A stretch of DNA of 26,768 bases from a virus (lineage: Duplodnaviria > Caudoviricetes), in the IMG/VR virus record IMGVR_UViG_3300011444_000021, positions 1-26,768 of that record, one strand, 5' to 3'. The notes under the pieces are model-generated. The model had not been told where the DNA came from and made no database searches. It saw nothing but the letters and a program-made list of their open reading frames with translations. This document shows, one piece after another, positions 1 through 25,569 of this stretch. Both the position numbers and the translations under genes were made by a program. Within the stretch, counting starts at the first letter, position 1, and each line of letters opens with the position of its first letter.

Positions 1-453
1 ATAGGACAGCATTTCTTCCCACTTTCCATCTGTGACCATGTCGGAAGCGTGCTTTCCATTCGCGTAATCACGAACTTCCTTCGACAGGATGCGACCTTGG
101 AGATGTGAAACGGCATCCGCCAAGGACCTTCGATTGCAGAGATACGACGACATATTCGCCGTGCAATACCACTCGGCGGGTTGGACTCGGGGAATCAGCC
201 CGCGCTCTTCCGCTGCCGCCGTCACCATTGCGTCAAAGCGCTTGTTATGGCTGACTAGAGTTTGCCCTTCAATCGCGGCGAAGTTGAAATCACGCGGCGC
301 ACCGGCCCACGAATCTTCACCATCGCTCACCGCCAGCAGATAGGGGTCGAACCGGTCATCATGGAGGTAGCGCCATATACCAAGTTCCTTGATGCCGTAG
401 CCCTGCTTGGTGGCGTAGAAAGTTTCCCAATCATATCCGATTACTCGTTTCAT
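1..453 (-). CDS. Family A DNA polymerase, N-terminal 3'-5' exonuclease domain (runs off the window)
   Basis: Hand-translated and absent from the ORF track: MKRVIGYDWETFY...VSHNKRFDAM...EEMLSY, with ExoI DxET and ExoII HNxxFD motifs. The ATG at 453 overlaps the TGA of the upstream Mom-like gene (ATGA). Confidence 0.85.
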   Translation of the reverse strand, partial: MKRVIGYDWETFYATKQGYGIKELGIWRYLHDDRFDPYLLAVSDGEDSWAGAPRDFNFAAIEGQTLVSHNKRFDAMVTAAAEERGLIPRVQPAEWYCTANMSSYLCNRRSLADAVSHLQGRILSKEVRDYANGKHASDMVTDGKWEEMLSY

Positions 454-1109
454 AGATAATAGACAAAGCAATGTTTCGGGGGAAGCGGAACTTTTTCAAG
501 GAGACCTAACGCCAATTTTGCTCGGAGTTTTTTGACGAAGGGCTTAAAGTCTCCCTTATACTTCACCCTCAAGCTTCGAGAGTGATATACTTTCCCGGTT
601 TCTGTATCCCGATACCCCGAGTCAGGAGAGGAAACTCCCAAATACTTAAAATTCGACGCTTTGTAAATGGTTCCACAATGCCCGAATCGGGGGTCGGCAT
701 AGCTCACTACTATCTCGGTCAAGGGCAAAAGTTTTCTAATCTGACGAAGGGTGTATCCGATTACTTTGGATTCCGAATTTTTCGGAACGCGGTCAAGCAA
801 AACCAACCGGCGAAGTTCAATAACTTTTTCCTCGGAGCTACCAAATTTTCTCCACGCGGTAGTCGCCATTGGACCAAAAATCACTGCCCCCACTAGCTCG
901 TTATCCATCTCCACCTTGAAACATTGTCGTGTCGTAACTCCGTTGACCGAACGACTGTAATGATTTGTTTCTACAAACTCGCGTATCTCCAAGAGCGAGC
1001 ATGGCGAAATTTGGAGCGCGCGGGTCGGAGTTGCACCGCCATCTAATGTCTGGTTGACATTCATTTTCGTTAAACTACGCGCGCAGAAAAAAGTTACTTT
1101 AGGGTGCAA
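450..1109 (-). CDS. Mom-like GNAT-fold DNA adenine modification protein (start uncertain: TTG 1109 or ATG 1064)
   Basis: Mom-family motifs NHYS, GAVIFG, IELRRL, KNSESKVI and VVSYADPRFGHCGTIYKASNFKYLG. Confidence 0.85.
   Translation of the reverse strand: MHPKVTFFCARSLTKMNVNQTLDGGATPTRALQISPCSLLEIREFVETNHYSRSVNGVTTRQCFKVEMDNELVGAVIFGPMATTAWRKFGSSEEKVIELRRLVLLDRVPKNSESKVIGYTLRQIRKLLPLTEIVVSYADPRFGHCGTIYKASNFKYLGVSSPDSGYRDTETGKVYHSRSLRVKYKGDFKPFVKKLRAKLALGLLEKVPLPPKHCFVYYL
1012..1084 (-). tRNA. Atypical tRNA-Gly-like RNA (anticodon ACC) overlapping the 5' end of Mom-like gene 1
   Basis: GCGCGCG TA GTTT-AACGA-AAAT G AATGT-CA ACC AG-ACATT AGAT GGCGG-TGCAACT-CCGACC CGCGCGC T CCA: a 73-nt cloverleaf with U73 and encoded CCA. 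Confidence 0.8.
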
Positions 1110-6070: not shown

Positions 6071-6700
6071 TCACCTCCCTTCGTCTGTCAAATCGAACTG
6101 AAAAACATGTTTCGGAGGGCAGACAATAATCTCAATTTCCTTCTCCGGAAATATTTTCTTTAGTCCGCTCCCCGAACATCCGTAAGCATCAAAAACACTT
6201 TTCGGATGAAATTCTTTTCCATCGATAACGATGCGGCGTGTCCCGTGACCAACCTCCATTCCCAAATATCGGAAATTGCTGGCCCGATAAATCCCGCCGC
6301 GATGCCCGAATCTCGGGTCGGAAAAACTTACGACTCTGTGATGTCCAGTTTGTTTCTTCAACCATCTCAGCGCCCATCCGATGAACTTGGATTCTGAGTT
6401 CTTTGAGCACTCATCGAGCATCGCGAGCCGGACTAACTCAAGGTCTGCCCCATACGCTTTTTCAACTTTCGGGAGCGACGGTTTGCGGAACACCAGCGCC
6501 CCAACCACTCGGGACTTCGACTCCGCGACAAAGTAGAATTTTCCCGGAGGACAACTCTGAGAGTAGTGAACTCGGGAAATAAATTTCCTCGGCTCTATCG
6601 AATCCGAGGGACGAAAGTGGAGCGCGGAGGTCGGAATTGCACCGCCATCAGAGGGCTGGATGCCCCCGGTTTTCGTTAAACTATCCGCGCAAAGATTCAT
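6071..6700 (-). CDS. Second Mom-like GNAT-fold DNA adenine modification protein
   Basis: VHYS, GALVF, LELVRL, KNSESKFIG and VVSFSDPRFGHRGGIYRASNFRYLG. The ATG overlaps the helicase TGA. Confidence 0.85.
   Translation of the reverse strand: MNLCADSLTKTGGIQPSDGGAIPTSALHFRPSDSIEPRKFISRVHYSQSCPPGKFYFVAESKSRVVGALVFRKPSLPKVEKAYGADLELVRLAMLDECSKNSESKFIGWALRWLKKQTGHHRVVSFSDPRFGHRGGIYRASNFRYLGMEVGHGTRRIVIDGKEFHPKSVFDAYGCSGSGLKKIFPEKEIEIIVCPPKHVFQFDLTDEGR
6618..6690 (-). tRNA. Atypical tRNA-Gly-like RNA (anticodon TCC) inside Mom-like gene 2
   Basis: GCGCGGA TA GTTT-AACGA-AAAC C GGGGG-CA TCC AG-CCCTC TGAT GGCGG-TGCAATT-CCGACC TCCGCGC T CCA: 73 nt, with stems that covary with the 1012-1084 copy. Confidence 0.82.
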
Positions 6701-8229
6701 TGGTTTTCTTCGACTTCAGTAATCGCATCGAGTGAGCGAGAAGTCAAGGGCAGGTTCGCCGCCCACAAGTCGCCATCATTCAGCGCGTCGATTTGATTGA
6801 GCTTCGCAGAAAGTTGCTTGTGCGCCTTCACCTCTACGGTATTCGCCGCGAGGATGACCCGGTAAATGGATTTGCTCTTGCCGCCCGCGCGGGGAAATCG
6901 TCCGCAGACCTGACGAAAAGCGGACGCACTCGACGGCAAGGATACTGCGCCCCCGCGCGGAAACTTCCCGGTGATGTCGTGGAGCGAGATGGAAACTCCC
7001 CCGGCGAGATTGTTAAGCAGGATTCCCCGCTCGCGGTCCTCTTGGATGTCGTCGATAAAACCCTGCCGCTCCCGCTGCCCCTTTGCCCCGCGCTGGGTTC
7101 CGTCGATACGGCATTTCCACTTGAGCCGCTTTTGCAGCGCGTCGAGAGTCGCGGTGAAGTTGACAAAAATTCCCACGGTGCGCCCGGCTTCCTGCATGGA
7201 GATAGCGACTTCCTCGAATATGGGAACCTTCAGCAATTCGATTTCCTGCTTGGCGTGAAGGATACGAGTCAGGGGAAGCTCCAAGGACCGGTCTCCCAAC
7301 TTGCGCTCATTAAGTTCGCGGATAGCGTCATCCATTTCCGCGTAGAGTTCGTCGATGCGCCCGCTCTCTTTGAGGTCGTAGAGTTCCGCGGTGATATGGC
7401 AGGCAGGAAACGCATCTCCGAGGTCCGCAATCCGTATCCGCGTGCCTCGCGACGGGAAAATTTCCGAGTGTAGCTGCGCCATTTTTTGACGCCGAGACTC
7501 TTCACTCCCCGTGAATTGCAATCCGCCAAAAGGTGATTTGCGACAACCGAGTCGGTTAGCCCAGCGGTAGAACCCGGGCGCATCCGAGTCCTTTCGGTCA
7601 ACCAGATAGTGCAACCCCAAGACATAGCCCAACGCCCGGAAATTGAGCGGAGAGTCTGCCACCGTCGCAGAAAGCGCCAGCACTGGAATGCCCGCAATTT
7701 TCGCACCGACGAGCATGTCCGAATTAAGCGAATCGATTGCTCCGCAACGGTGAATCTCATCCTGAATGAGTAGCCGTATGTTTCGGTTCCAAAAGAATTT
7801 TCCATAGTTGTGAAGTTTGGTTTTAATGACGGCGCAGTGAATTCCCGCGGGATGGTGCGGACACGGGAACGGTTTCACCAAGTCAATCTTCAACTGGCAC
7901 TCGCTGCATTCGAGAAACTCGTCGCGAGGTCCGTCGGGAGGCATGTGCTCCCACGTCCCGAACGGAGTCCGGCCCGTGCGAATCATTTCGTAATTTAGCG
8001 CGTCAAACTCCGTGCCCATAATTTCTCCGACGCGCTTCCACGCGGAAATCGAAATTTGAGGACACACAACCAAAGTAGGGACGTTTAGTTCACGAGCGAC
8101 CGCCACTGCCACAAAAGTTTTTCCAGTGCCCATATCAGACCCATCAATCGCCGAGCGACCCGACTGTAAAATCTTCAGGAGATGCTCCGCCGCCGGTTTT
8201 TGGTATTCCAGAAGTCCCGCGGTGTTCAT
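6697..8229 (-). CDS. Superfamily II (SNF2-like) helicase with Cys/His insert
   Basis: Walker A DMGTGKT, QDEIH and LSAT motifs, a C-terminal QVCGRFPR motif VI variant, and a CSEC...CPHH...HC insert. Confidence 0.88.
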   Translation of the reverse strand: MNTAGLLEYQKPAAEHLLKILQSGRSAIDGSDMGTGKTFVAVAVARELNVPTLVVCPQISISAWKRVGEIMGTEFDALNYEMIRTGRTPFGTWEHMPPDGPRDEFLECSECQLKIDLVKPFPCPHHPAGIHCAVIKTKLHNYGKFFWNRNIRLLIQDEIHRCGAIDSLNSDMLVGAKIAGIPVLALSATVADSPLNFRALGYVLGLHYLVDRKDSDAPGFYRWANRLGCRKSPFGGLQFTGSEESRRQKMAQLHSEIFPSRGTRIRIADLGDAFPACHITAELYDLKESGRIDELYAEMDDAIRELNERKLGDRSLELPLTRILHAKQEIELLKVPIFEEVAISMQEAGRTVGIFVNFTATLDALQKRLKWKCRIDGTQRGAKGQRERQGFIDDIQEDRERGILLNNLAGGVSISLHDITGKFPRGGAVSLPSSASAFRQVCGRFPRAGGKSKSIYRVILAANTVEVKAHKQLSAKLNQIDALNDGDLWAANLPLTSRSLDAITEVEENQ

Positions 8230-17181: not shown

Positions 17182-17359
17182 GCGGCTCGCACCTTGGCGG
17201 ACCCCTTTTTCAAATGGTGGGGAGCTTATTATTGATAATACCTATTATGCGTGTGAGAGATAAATAATAGAAAAGAGGATATATAAGGAAGGACGGTCTG
17301 AACTATCCTCAATAACTTCCCCAGCGTTTGAAAAAGGGGTCCGCCAAGGTGCGAGCCGC
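17182..17359. repeat. Perfect 33-bp inverted repeat flanking an AT-rich spacer
   Basis: 17182-17214 GCGGCTCGCACCTTGGCGGACCCCTTTTTCAAA is the exact reverse complement of 17327-17359. Confidence 0.95.
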
Positions 17360-17424: not shown

Positions 17425-17568
17425 ATGCCTGACAAGTCCAAGAAAGATTGTAGCGACGAGCTTTTCAAGAACGCCCCCGAGCATGTGAAGAAACTTCACA
17501 AGCAGTCTAAGAAGCTGTGCCGCGAGGTGAAGCGCAAACTCTGGTGGGACCAGAACAAACCGAAATGA
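17425..17568 (+). CDS. Small basic protein (47 aa)
   Basis: Hand-translated MPDKSKKDCSDELFKNAPEHVKK...NKPK, with an ATGA overlap into the next gene. Confidence 0.55.
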   Translation: MPDKSKKDCSDELFKNAPEHVKKLHKQSKKLCREVKRKLWWDQNKPK

Positions 17569-18194
17569 AGATTGACAAGTCCAAGCTGGACGTTGCCCAG
17601 ATTTTTCTTACGTTCATGTCGCTCATTGGCGACGTAGATAAGACCGCGGCGGCACTCGACCTGAGTCCGCATATCGTTGCGGGACTGGCCGAGCAGGAAG
17701 GCTGGCTTGAGAAGGTGCGTCGCCTCTCCGTGATGTCGAAGAGTGGTAAGCAAGGTGACTATGAGCGCGCCCAGAACCGCGCGTTGAACTTTGTTCAGGC
17801 TCACCGTATGCGGATGACTGTTGATGCCCTGTTGCGTGCCTTCGACGGACTTAGCCCTGAAGAGATTGTTGAAAAGCTTTCCACTTGCGATAAGAACGGC
17901 CATTACCACATCAGCGCGCGGTTTCTTGCAGACCTTGCTGCTGCCTCAGAGAAGATTCAGGCGCTTTCGTATGCCGCCTTGGGAGACTCTGTCAAGGAGC
18001 GCGTGGAGCGCGCGGAAGCAGCAGATGGCGAGATGACACCCGACCAGTTGCACGCGGCAGTTATTGCCGCATTGAACGCTCCTCATGCACCCGCCGTTGC
18101 CTCGCAAGTGCTTGAGGCGGAAGTGAGACTTATTGTCGCACCGAGCGAAAATCTCCAGCCGCCCGCTGTCGAGCCCGGAGTGAGTAATGCGTGA
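17565..18194 (+). CDS. Probable terminase small subunit (N-terminal HTH, helical body)
   Basis: HTH-like GDVDKTAAALDLSPHIVAGLAEQEGW. First large gene of the arm leading to TerL, followed by a repeat-rich noncoding block. Confidence 0.5.
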   Translation: MKIDKSKLDVAQIFLTFMSLIGDVDKTAAALDLSPHIVAGLAEQEGWLEKVRRLSVMSKSGKQGDYERAQNRALNFVQAHRMRMTVDALLRAFDGLSPEEIVEKLSTCDKNGHYHISARFLADLAAASEKIQALSYAALGDSVKERVERAEAADGEMTPDQLHAAVIAALNAPHAPAVASQVLEAEVRLIVAPSENLQPPAVEPGVSNA

Positions 18195-18280
18195 AAATCA
18201 CGCGTTAACGTTAATGTAACTGCGTGAAAACCACGCATTGATGCGTGAAAATCACGCATTGATGCGTGAAAATCACGCAT
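18187..18280. repeat. Four palindromic GCGTGAAAA(T/C)CACGC units
   Basis: Copies start at about 18187, 18220, 18241 and 18262, and the last three have a 21-bp period. Confidence 0.92.
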
Positions 18281-18549
18281 AGTCTCGATGGCCTTGTGGC
18301 ATAGAGACTTAGGTGTAAATAATCTTACCTATCTCTTGACAGTCAAATGAGACACTCAGTCTGGACACTTGGACAGTGCGACATTTTGGCGCAGTGGGAT
18401 GAGAGACGGGGGACAATCGGGCGGTGCGCCCTCGCTCGGTGATTCGCCAGCAAAACTATTTTTTCTCATCGGAGACCCGGCAATGTTTACATAGCACATA
18501 TGCAAAAAGCCGATTTGACCGTTCCTAGAAATGCGATACCCTGACCACC

Positions 18550-22073: not shown

Positions 22074-22149
22074 GGCGGGATGGCGCAGTGTTCAGCGCGC
22101 TTGGCTCATAACCAAGAGGTCGGAGGTTAAAATCCTTCTCCCGCTCCCA
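22074..22149 (+). tRNA. tRNA with CAU anticodon (Met or Ile2), atypical
   Basis: GGCGGGA TG GCGC-AGTGTTCA-GCGC G CTTGG-CT CAT AA-CCAAG AGGTC GGAGG-TTAAAAT-CCTTC TCCCGCT C CCA, 76 nt. Confidence 0.92.
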
Positions 22150-23141: not shown

Positions 23142-23927
23142 TTGAAAACGGCACTTCTCTGGAATACTTATCTCGGGGACCTTCACTGGTTCCGATTTAG
23201 CGCCGCGAGCTTTACCAAGTTCGCGCGCGGACGTTTCCACTCCGTTGCTTGTCTCGTTCCCACTCGGCACCGGGATAATTTTCGGGAGACCTGCGAGCAT
23301 CACGGCATCACCCTTCTCGACCGCCCGGACTGGCCGGACAAATCCTTCAACTGGCACCAGATGTGGCAGTGTCAGGCCGACATGCTTTTTCCTGACGCGG
23401 ACGCCATCTGGCACATGGACGCAGACACGGTGTTTACTGCGCCGTGTGGACCGGAGGACTGGATGTCGGATGGAAAACTTCTCTGCCCCTACGTGAATTT
23501 CGACTATCTTCTCGCGATGGAGGGCCGATTTGGAAACTGGATGTGGAAGTCCCGGGTTGATGATGCAATCGGTGGCGATGTGAAATGGGCGACCATGACG
23601 GGGCATCCGCATTGCCATTACCGCAACGTCTATGCGCGCACGCGCGAGGAAGTTGCCCGGCACACGCACTCATGGGAGAAATACATTCACCTTCAGCAAA
23701 ACTTGCACCCCCAAGGATTTTGTGAGTTTGAGACTCTCGGCGCGATTGCCCAGCGACACTATGCCAACGACTACGTCTGGCGTGATTTACAGAAGGAGGT
23801 CCATCCGTCCATCGGACGAGTGGCTCAATGCTATTCCCACGGTGGACTCGACGCCATTCATCCGTTCCCTCCTCCGCTCGGCGGAATTCAGACTCCTCGA
23901 CAACTTTTTCAACGGCTCGGTCTGTGA
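23142..23927 (+). CDS. GT-A fold glycosyltransferase-like protein (DUF6492-like), paralog 1
   Basis: QMWQCQAD...IWHMDADTVF (DxD), FCEFETLG and SHGGLD. Confidence 0.65.
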   Translation: MKTALLWNTYLGDLHWFRFSAASFTKFARGRFHSVACLVPTRHRDNFRETCEHHGITLLDRPDWPDKSFNWHQMWQCQADMLFPDADAIWHMDADTVFTAPCGPEDWMSDGKLLCPYVNFDYLLAMEGRFGNWMWKSRVDDAIGGDVKWATMTGHPHCHYRNVYARTREEVARHTHSWEKYIHLQQNLHPQGFCEFETLGAIAQRHYANDYVWRDLQKEVHPSIGRVAQCYSHGGLDAIHPFPPPLGGIQTPRQLFQRLGL

Positions 23928-24709
23928 AAACCGCACTTCTTTGGAACACGTTTGGAAAAGACCTTGAGTGGTTCCGCTACTCCGCGGCCAGCTACGCGAA
24001 GTTCGCGCGCGGGTGGAATGACGCGGTGTGTTTGGTCCCCACCAGTGACGCCATACCGTTCATTCCCGTCTGTGAGAAATACGGGATTCGTCTTATTTAC
24101 GCGCCTGCGTGGGTGGACAAGGGTTTCAACTGGCACCAGATGCAACAATGCTGCGCGGACATGCACCTCCCGAACGCGGACGCTATCTGGCACATGGACG
24201 CCGACTGTGTTTTCACCTCGTTCTGCACCCCCGAATGCTGGAAGGAAAACGGAAAATTGGTGTGCTCCTATTTTCAGTTTGAGGATTTGCTCGGTGTGAA
24301 CGAGTGGGGACCCGGAATGTGGAAATCTCGCGTGGACGTTGCAATCGGCGGCGACGTAAAGTGGTCCACGATGACGGGGCACCCGCACTGCCACTATCGG
24401 GAGGTCTATGAGGTAACACGCGCGCTCGTGGCCGACAAACACCCCGAGGGATTCGCGGATTACGTCTTCTCGTGCGAGAATTCCTATCCGCAGGGATTCT
24501 GTGAGTTCGAGACACTCGGCGCGACCGCGCAGATGCTATTCAAGTCCGACTACCACTGGAATCGTCTGGAAACCAAAGCCACGCATCCGTCTGCCGGACT
24601 TGTCGCGGAAGGGTGGAGCCACGGCGGGCTCGACCACGTTGTCAGCGATAAGCTCGACGGAGTCAGCACCGCCCGAGAATTTTTTCAGAAAGCCGGAATT
24701 ACCCTATGA
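23924..24709 (+). CDS. GT-A fold glycosyltransferase-like protein, paralog 2
   Basis: The GTG start overlaps the paralog 1 TGA. Collinear with paralog 1 (KTALLWNT, HMDADCVF, FCEFETLG, SHGGLD). Confidence 0.65.
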   Translation: MKTALLWNTFGKDLEWFRYSAASYAKFARGWNDAVCLVPTSDAIPFIPVCEKYGIRLIYAPAWVDKGFNWHQMQQCCADMHLPNADAIWHMDADCVFTSFCTPECWKENGKLVCSYFQFEDLLGVNEWGPGMWKSRVDVAIGGDVKWSTMTGHPHCHYREVYEVTRALVADKHPEGFADYVFSCENSYPQGFCEFETLGATAQMLFKSDYHWNRLETKATHPSAGLVAEGWSHGGLDHVVSDKLDGVSTAREFFQKAGITL

Positions 24710-25569
24710 ACCATCAAGTCCTAATCTCGTCCTACAAAAAAGATTTTATCTGGCTCGGCCCATGTCTGGCCAGCTTGCGAAAATTCTCGAAGGGATTTTT
24801 GCCCCCGGTCGTCTCCGTTGCGCCCGACGATTATCTCGGCGCGTGTGAAGTAACCCGAAAGTATTACCCCGAGGTGAATGTCGTGGTGGATTGTGATACG
24901 CGCGGGCTGTTAAAAGGAAATCTCCGCGCCCAGCTTTCGATGATGCATTCGGACGTTCTCTGTCCGAGGGCAGACTACATTTGGCTAGTCGGTAGCGATT
25001 GCATCGTCCACTCGGAGTTTTCCCCGGAGCCGTTTTTTCACGACGGAAAACCAGTGATGCTCACCAATAGCTACGAGCATCTTCTCAAGTATGTTCCGCG
25101 CGCGTGCATAATTCCGTGGCAGGATGGAGTCGAACAGGCGCTCGGATTTCGACCGACGCACGAATATATGCGCCGTCTTCCGCTCATGTATCACCGAAGG
25201 CTCTTCAAGGATACGCGCGAAGCCGTCGAAGCTCGTCATGCGTGCGCGTTCACCGATTACGTTTACGACATTCACCACACGGTTTACAACAGCGACCGGA
25301 CAGAGCGGACCGAGCGGTCGGATGCGTCGAACTTCTCCGAGAGCAATCTTCTCGGCGCGTATGCTGACCGATTCTTCCCCGGCGCATTTCATTGGGTATG
25401 CTTGGACTACCAGCCGAATACAATTCCGAATCCGATGATTCAGTTTTGGAGCCACGGAGGACTCGACATGGAATGTGATGTTCGCTTTGACTACTCGGGC
25501 GGGAACACGTTCGGCAAAACGCCGCGCGCGGTCATCACGGAAATTTTAGGAGCCAATGCTCTCGACTGA
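24706..25569 (+). CDS. GT-A-like protein, divergent paralog 3
   Basis: SYKKDFIWL, QLSMMHSD...IWLVGSDCIV (DxD replaced by GSD), FSESNLLG and WSHGGLD. Confidence 0.6.
   Translation: MNHQVLISSYKKDFIWLGPCLASLRKFSKGFLPPVVSVAPDDYLGACEVTRKYYPEVNVVVDCDTRGLLKGNLRAQLSMMHSDVLCPRADYIWLVGSDCIVHSEFSPEPFFHDGKPVMLTNSYEHLLKYVPRACIIPWQDGVEQALGFRPTHEYMRRLPLMYHRRLFKDTREAVEARHACAFTDYVYDIHHTVYNSDRTERTERSDASNFSESNLLGAYADRFFPGAFHWVCLDYQPNTIPNPMIQFWSHGGLDMECDVRFDYSGGNTFGKTPRAVITEILGANALD

Follow-up and report, generated by a model that had tools for sequence, protein, structure and literature searches.

A tRNA-Gly-like element overlapping in frame the ends of phage mom genes: a candidate enzyme-plus-donor cassette

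Each of the two mom genes in the phage DNA analysed here is overlapped in frame, at its 5' end, by a tRNA-Gly-like element. Comparative sequence analysis of the family to which these elements belong establishes the in-frame overlap, a conserved cloverleaf under nucleotide constraint and a tight linkage to Mom. The reading favoured here, with a probability of about 0.6, is that of a compact cassette, in which some transcripts would yield Mom and others a tRNA-Gly that GlyRS can charge, that avoids EF-Tu and that feeds Mom. The whole stretch of DNA analysed (26.8 kb) is referred to as the window, and the features concerned are as follows.

450..1109, minus strand: mom copy 1, start uncertain; PF25680 at 2e-38 (Pfam)
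1012..1084, minus strand: tRNA-Gly-like element copy 1, 73 nt; anticodon ACC
6071..6700, minus strand: mom copy 2, 209 aa; PF25680 at 2e-26 (Pfam)
6618..6690, minus strand: tRNA-Gly-like element copy 2, 73 nt; overlaps mom codons 4-28
6697..8229, minus strand: SF2 helicase-like ORF; weak ResIII/DEAD/Helicase_C matches, below cut-off

A preliminary description of this DNA had joined ATG 6700 to the helicase stop and placed the cloverleaf 10 nt further on, and the coordinates, read again, agree. The ATG of mom copy 2 (6700-6698) shares bases with the TGA of the helicase-like ORF (6699-6697) as ATGA, an overlap through which the two are likely to be translationally coupled; G1 of the cloverleaf, at 6690, lies 10 nt past the ATG, and CCA occupies 6620-6618. 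The N-terminus of copy 2 reads MNL-CADSLTKTGGIQPSDGGAIPTSALH-F and runs into the Pfam Mom core (PF25680), codons L27-H28 being written by C72-U73-C74 and C75-A76. Copy 1 is open through its element in the same register, as had been claimed, and translates as CARSLTKMNVNQTLDGGATPTRALQ. The further claim that no in-frame ATG separates the CCA from the HYS motif in either gene is borne out by the reading frames; in copy 2, in-frame GTG and TTG are absent from this interval as well. Upstream of G1, copy 1 has only an in-frame TTG (1109) and no ATG, while an in-frame ATG (1064) lies inside the cloverleaf and a TTG (992) past the CCA. Initiation at TTG 1109 would read the whole element and at ATG 1064 its 3' two-thirds. 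A start at TTG 992 is unlikely, as it would remove the first strand, beta-1, so that in both genes the coding sequence very likely includes the 3' part of the cloverleaf, if not more. Local folding around copy 1 singled out no start candidate.

The Mom cores of the two copies are 37% identical, and both contain residues equivalent to the catalytic R111 and S124 of Mu Mom (R91 and S104 in copy 2). The AlphaFold model of copy 2 matches 8bv8 with Z 18.5 and rmsd 3.1 over 170 aligned residues (next row, Z 13.9); with a profile score above cut-off and a GNAT fold like that of 8bv8, copy 2 belongs to PF25680. Elsewhere in the window, an inverted repeat with 56-nt arms (17182-17359, 88% complementary) lies between the leftward and rightward gene blocks and may be an origin or have a regulatory function. 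At 18188-18283, just past the ORF at 17517-18194, are four near-palindromic repeats of 21 nt, spaced by 33, 21 and 21 nt, and three consecutive ORFs of 261-293 aa (23142-25569) have no Pfam match, the first two being clear paralogues. A tRNA with a CAU anticodon and the unusual T-loop UUAAAAU is located at 22074-22149.

The copy 2 element folds as a cloverleaf, with the pairs G1-C72, C2-G71 and G3-C70 and a short D-loop devoid of GG. Its anticodon loop, CAUCCAG, presents UCC (6660-6658) with an A replacing U33; the T-stem contains a bulged A (6631), the T-loop is UGCAAUU, and U73 is at 6621. In copy 1 the anticodon is ACC, and the A replacing U33, the bulged T-stem, U73 and CCA are as in copy 2. 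U33 is a mark of canonical, translation-competent tRNA, and it is missing from both copies along with the other canonical marks, namely a regular 5-bp T-stem, a UUC T-loop and a D-loop GG; canonical tRNA controls showed the UUC T-loop in 90/95 and the D-loop GG in 86/95. A UGC T-loop occurs in 78 of 147 family members. Counted at fixed positions, since the anticodon parser favoured CC, C35 was found in 88/95 of the family's elements, C36 in 90/95 and U33 in 46/95, base 34 being variable. Both window copies keep G1-C72, C2-G71, C35, C36, U73 and CCA, and the first five of these make up the bacterial GlyRS identity set (PMC9976931). An RNA that has kept glycine identity and lost the marks of translation fits a private glycyl donor, as far as its sequence can tell.

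Support for the cloverleaf beyond chance is comparative rather than derived from folding. Single-sequence folding of the two copies is weak (z -1.8 and -2.1), but the elements are 78% identical with compensatory stem changes, and pairing across 79 family members reaches 99.6% in the acceptor stem and 99.5% in the bulged T-stem, figures in which the terminal GCG/CGC and GG/CC pairs were preset by the search patterns or parser and acceptor pairs 4-7 were free. Both sides had changed in 16 of 21 pairs, and acceptor pairs 4-7 covary across the family. ARAGORN and Rfam scans of the window detected neither copy. Among 149 non-redundant elements, the two window elements (1012-1084 and 6618-6690) are each other's nearest match (78%) and the D-loop they have in common, AACGAAAA, is rare; their Mom cores, by contrast, fall in different tree branches. 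Mutually nearest elements beside distant cores suggest that the element was copied between the two mom genes inside this phage.

Linkage to Mom was assessed with a DNA pattern for T-loop, acceptor and U73-CCA that was lengthened by one base, the control being the canonical length. A Mom ORF was found in the flanks of 55 of 72 loci with a T-arm of bulged length, against 1 of 68 with the canonical length, counting loci with full flanks in sequence fetched up to 900 nt a side and leaving out short-flank loci. Pfam identified 78 of 79 sampled cores beside elements as Mom. A scan of a genome collection (GTDB) added 97 further loci from many phyla, 7 of 96 GTDB matches having been dropped because no acceptor stem could be paired, plus 1 truncated element. 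Clustering of near-duplicates at 88% identity reduced 226 elements to 149; one 5'-fused element with a longer linker (L506) was kept unclassified. Related sequences do not count as independent cases, but in a FastTree tree the 5'-fused state requires 11 changes, 5 of which are forced by starred branches. The protein search of viral contigs with the copy 2 core returned no relative, and the metagenome scan recovered only the window itself and no near-identical variant of copy 2.

Linkage is not absolute in either direction. Bulged elements had no Mom in the fetched flanks at the remaining 17 of 72 loci, plus 9 full-flank GTDB loci. Some of these have other neighbours: a glycosyltransferase gene precedes the element of L061/L482, that of L270 lies between PAPS-reductase and ParB genes, and that of L466 closes, in frame, an ORF that encodes a C5 DNA methylase domain. 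A match in a YuA-like phage was weak (22.9 bits), not beside a Mom, and was set aside. Conversely, none of 52 loci found with the copy 1 core has an element within 2 kb (one has canonical tRNAs), and mom has no element next to it in the cultured phages ICP1-like JSF4, Stickynote and RaK2. In Klebsiella phage RaK2, a tRNA-Gly(UCC) whose T-loop has 8 nt is encoded some 41 kb away from mom (L686:1501-1576), which is possibly another route to disabling a donor tRNA. The RNA element is optional for Mom, and many Moms have none, as follows from the 52 copy 1-core loci and from the acceptance of three host isoacceptors by Mu Mom.

The central claim, that the N-terminus of Mom is encoded by the same bases as the RNA, is backed by comparative sequence and the predicted fold. 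The Mom frame is open over the whole element in 65 of 67 non-redundant 5' elements (50/52 when RNA-pattern matches alone are counted), compared with 18 and 19 of the 65 for the two remaining frames. The corresponding figures for the three frames are 7, 5 and 5 of 24 in free elements and 46, 42 and 19 of 95 in canonical tRNAs. An in-frame ATG stands within 21 nt before G1 in 35/65 5' fusions, whereas the remaining frames have one in 8 and 6; in the 15 nt that follow the CCA, an ATG is found in 1/65 fusions but in both of the two unfused 5' cases. A GTG or TTG falls in that 15-nt interval in 12/65 fusions, where a downstream start is thus possible. Frame 0 is used by 63/65 5' fusions, in 60 of which the distance from G1 to the T-arm is 44, 47 or 50 nt, achieved by an 8-nt anticodon loop (17/26) or by lengthening or shortening of the D-loop; the canonical 18/7/4 geometry (46 nt) was seen in 0/26 viral 5' fusions.

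In the AlphaFold model of copy 2, residues 1-20 are predicted to be unstructured (pLDDT 56), beta-1 spans residues 28-32, starting at the CCA codon, and the alignment to Mu Mom extends from residue 22 on. The CCA lies about 17 aa before HYS, and seven of the nearest RNA-less proteins begin 24-29 aa before that motif. For one relative (L092), four RNA runs gave a single low-depth contig, three being without yield: its 162 nt (888-1045, depth 2.9) span G1 and stop 13 nt past the CCA, too sparse a signal to weigh either way. An open frame with an upstream or internal start is combined here with constraint on individual nucleotides, and with synonymous sites either frozen or covarying as base pairs, dual coding with an RNA imprint at mom 5' ends is well supported by these comparisons.

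That constraint was revealed by a scan with the back-translated peptide, third positions free, which yielded 54 distinct 5' elements. The suppression of synonymous variation anticipated in homologues is evident: Phe is TTC in 54/54 and Thr is ACC in 54/54, with same-gene backgrounds of 0.36 and 0.17, and Leu is CTC in 49/54 (background 0.10). The third positions of Gly and Pro covary as base pair 51-63, and Gln, at the unconstrained position 38, is free (CAA/CAG, 33/21). The codon at the anticodon specifies 12 different residues, with nearly all codons ending in C, and the Cys of 'CAD' stems from U at -1, present in 30/65 5' fusions. When not forced by the pattern, CCA was encoded in 49/54 and lacking in 5/54.

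A very improbable alternative holds that a decayed tRNA gene or integration site was captured as an N-terminal extension and is kept for its peptide. It would agree with the match of the last codons to the IxAxxLxF slot of RNA-less relatives, with the prevalence of frame 0 (63/65 5' and 55/58 3' fusions), and with the lowered activity of Mu Mom after removal of 20 N-terminal residues, reported in the accessible part of PMC13219725. However, it is largely refuted by the frozen or covarying synonymous sites, and the covariation of acceptor pairs 4-7 also speaks against it. Changes of G to S, D or A and of T to P, I or S are tolerated where the stem is kept, the +1-frame fusions L457, L467 and L512 encode a different peptide, and the nearest tree neighbours of Mom copy 2, except P0003, do not have the peptide. 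The earlier view that the motif is an imprint of RNA structure thus largely stands: frozen codons, covariation of pair 51-63, the variety of residues at the anticodon and the +1-frame fusions indicate a motif derived mainly from RNA. It does not cover everything, as the last seven or so element codons fill the slot before beta-1 and C-terminal fusions also have a frame bias. Of the latter, for example L055, L066, L110 and L067, 55/58 keep frame 0 at the T-arm although their element lengths (39-48 nt) fall in all three phases, and the other frames are open in 32 and 13 of 58. Descent and module swapping may suffice for this bias, or the peptide may matter somewhat.

The position of the element relative to mom bears on whether overlap is itself selected. 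Of 82 elements at mom 3' ends, the frame continues through 58, whereas in the other 24 mom terminates ahead of the element or within it; at 5' ends, 2/67 elements leave an ATG that belongs to mom alone. In Psychrobacter phage Y8A a free pair of elements in tandem, separated by 4 nt, directly follows the mom stop (L456:1401-1541), and Salinibacter phage B2_17 has one free element after mom. In addition, the Psychrobacter phage has a second mom without an element, and in the Salinibacter phage (L675:596-1276) two frames divide the mom match between them, and no CCA is encoded in the element. No ATG is close by except within the cloverleaf in 11/65 5' fusions, and there the start codon would survive RNase P cleavage at the 5' end. 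The proposal that excision destroys the mRNA agrees with the geometry of copy 2; as a general rule it fails, given the free and tandem forms, the Moms without an element and the internal ATGs. Free, tandem and 3' forms point to a separable RNA, and an enzyme-or-RNA control cannot be universal. For copy 2 such a control is plausible from the arrangement of the sequence.

The donor cassette could be taken one step further, with overlap selected as a switch by which each transcript yields either Mom or donor RNA. Competition between ribosome and RNase P, or binding of Mom to the cloverleaf, would then set the ratio of enzyme to donor and cap toxicity. This addition, tentative and rather doubtful at present, is encouraged by the dominance of overlap whichever end of mom is concerned (5', 65/67; 3', 58/82), by the proximity of the ATG before G1 in 35/65 fusions to the footprint of an initiating ribosome, and by the stop codon that cutting would remove from 3' fusions. 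An SD-like word in the 5' strand of the acceptor, which would be hidden by folding, occurs in 12/15 elements with an ATG at +14 against 14/50 without, and in 9/31 canonical tRNAs. Overexpressed Mom is reported, in the text available, to be lethal to E. coli (PMC7261163), which makes a dampening role of the overlap plausible. However, the switch has no place in the 24/82 3' elements with a stop before or inside them, the 2/67 5' elements with a separate mom ATG or the two free tandem copies of phage Y8A, and the overlap may have arisen passively. Canonical phage tRNA-Gly has an ATG at +14 in 31/95 cases, which hints at an origin for frame-0 fusions. A cassette of this kind, widespread in phages and mobile elements, in which the fold masks or cuts off the start (5') or takes away the stop (3') and the contest of ribosome and RNase P sets the ratio, is possible, with the odds against it.

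The separate positions also weigh on a reading in which the RNA has a role in cis and no other, mimicking tRNA as an operator or stabiliser of the mRNA that is bound by Mom or GlyRS and never released in charged form. The element almost always shares strand and transcript unit with mom, the 5' class overlaps the initiation region, the D-arm shrinks to 11-14 nt in some 3' elements, and 5/54 have no encoded CCA, all of which would suit such an operator. The occurrence of 5', 3', free and tandem positions would not be expected of one, and features of free ends are kept, so this reading is improbable. These features are a U at -1 in 16/24 free elements as well as in the fused elements already noted (30/65), A/T-rich trailers in all three classes, and the CCA of 49/54. 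Given the preferences of RNase P and RNase E, the U at -1 and the A/T-rich trailers fit pre-tRNA processing. A scan for promoters and terminators gave chance-level counts, with nothing at either element. A tmRNA-like mechanism was dropped, the CCA being upstream of the coding body.

In the favoured cassette, the same bases would be translated as the mostly unstructured N-terminal arm of Mom and its first strand, or be released from the transcript by host RNase P and 3' processing. The released RNA would be a ribosome-incompetent tRNA-Gly, likely Mom's own glycyl donor: host GlyRS would charge it, the T-stem bulge would keep it from EF-Tu, and Mom would pass the glycine on to adenine N6, the reaction that Mu Mom performs with host Gly-tRNA. 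The steps of processing, charging and donor use are proposed by analogy with Mu Mom and with the non-proteogenic tRNA-Gly of staphylococci. Processing would deprive a copy 2 transcript of its start codon and so set folding against translation. Such competition would be a consequence of the compact enzyme-plus-substrate cassette and may dampen Mom output; it is not taken here as the established cause of the overlap.

Embedding of a tRNA-Gly-like sequence in mom is already known. In 16 Dehalococcoides ssrA islands, a 76-bp tRNA-Gly-like locus falls within the initial 150 bp of a mom homologue, and the available text of that report proposes no function for it (McMurdie et al., 2011; PMC3146451). 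As in the window, the published pseudo-tRNA is tRNA-Gly-like, sits in the mom 5' end, has a variable first anticodon base (DCC) and is conserved at its 3' end. By description, the window copies fit it at 73 nt, codons 4-28 (copy 2) and anticodons UCC and ACC. Assemblies of Chloroflexota contributed 16 of the 35 GTDB 5' elements, and from these hits and a comparison by description rather than with the published alignment, the Dehalococcoides pseudo-tRNA very probably belongs to the same family as the window elements. A gene or domain for the ParB N-terminal domain lies directly upstream of mom or the element at L456, L675 and L472, like the Dehalococcoides module. In the accessible text of the 2011 paper there is no reading-frame test and no mention of a bulge in the T-stem, of elements that are 3'-fused, free or in tandem, or of a distribution among phages (PMC3146451). 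In the literature outside subscription journals and bioRxiv supplements, no paper was found that ties such an element to the substrate of Mom or tests its frame, nor was a description found of the T-stem bulge or of the 3', free and tandem forms.

Mu Mom has recently been found to take glycine from Gly-tRNA-Gly and is active with all three host tRNA-Gly isoacceptors, according to the available text (Silva et al., 2026; PMC13219725), in which a term search found no phage-encoded, overlapping or tRNA-like donor. The window Moms share with it the family (PF25680), the fold (8bv8) and the R111/S124 equivalents in both copies; unlike Mu Mom, whose donor is host tRNA-Gly, they are known here from sequence and model. 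The closest parallel for the RNA is found in Staphylococcus, where, in the text available, tRNA-Gly NP1-NP3 are EF-Tu-avoiding donors for FmhB, FemA and FemB and have a UGC T-loop (PMC7826273). Glycine identity, UGC in place of UUC, a T-stem altered at the EF-Tu contact pairs and a GNAT-family transferase are common to both systems, and both window copies have the UGC T-loop and an altered T-stem, in the form of a bulge and not of A-U pairs. However, NP1-NP3 as described are free-standing genes with weak A-U pairs in the T-stem, whereas here the T-stem has a bulged A, U33 and base 34 are variable, and the RNA overlaps the coding sequence of its enzyme. Low EF-Tu affinity was measured for NP1-NP3, according to the same text; for the mom elements we infer it.

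If phages do carry an EF-Tu-proof donor in mom, their DNA would be modified without competing for the tRNA pool of host translation, and dedicated donor tRNAs would extend beyond the staphylococcal cell wall. The Dehalococcoides curiosity of 2011 gains a testable function, and the cultured phages Psychrobacter Y8A and Salinibacter B2_17 offer free forms of the element. For annotation, these elements escape tRNA finders, and what many Mom annotations contain as a 'conserved GGxxPTxxLQ motif' is mainly RNA rather than protein. The overlap is a natural case in which a tRNA and a protein would be selected on the same strand and in the same bases.
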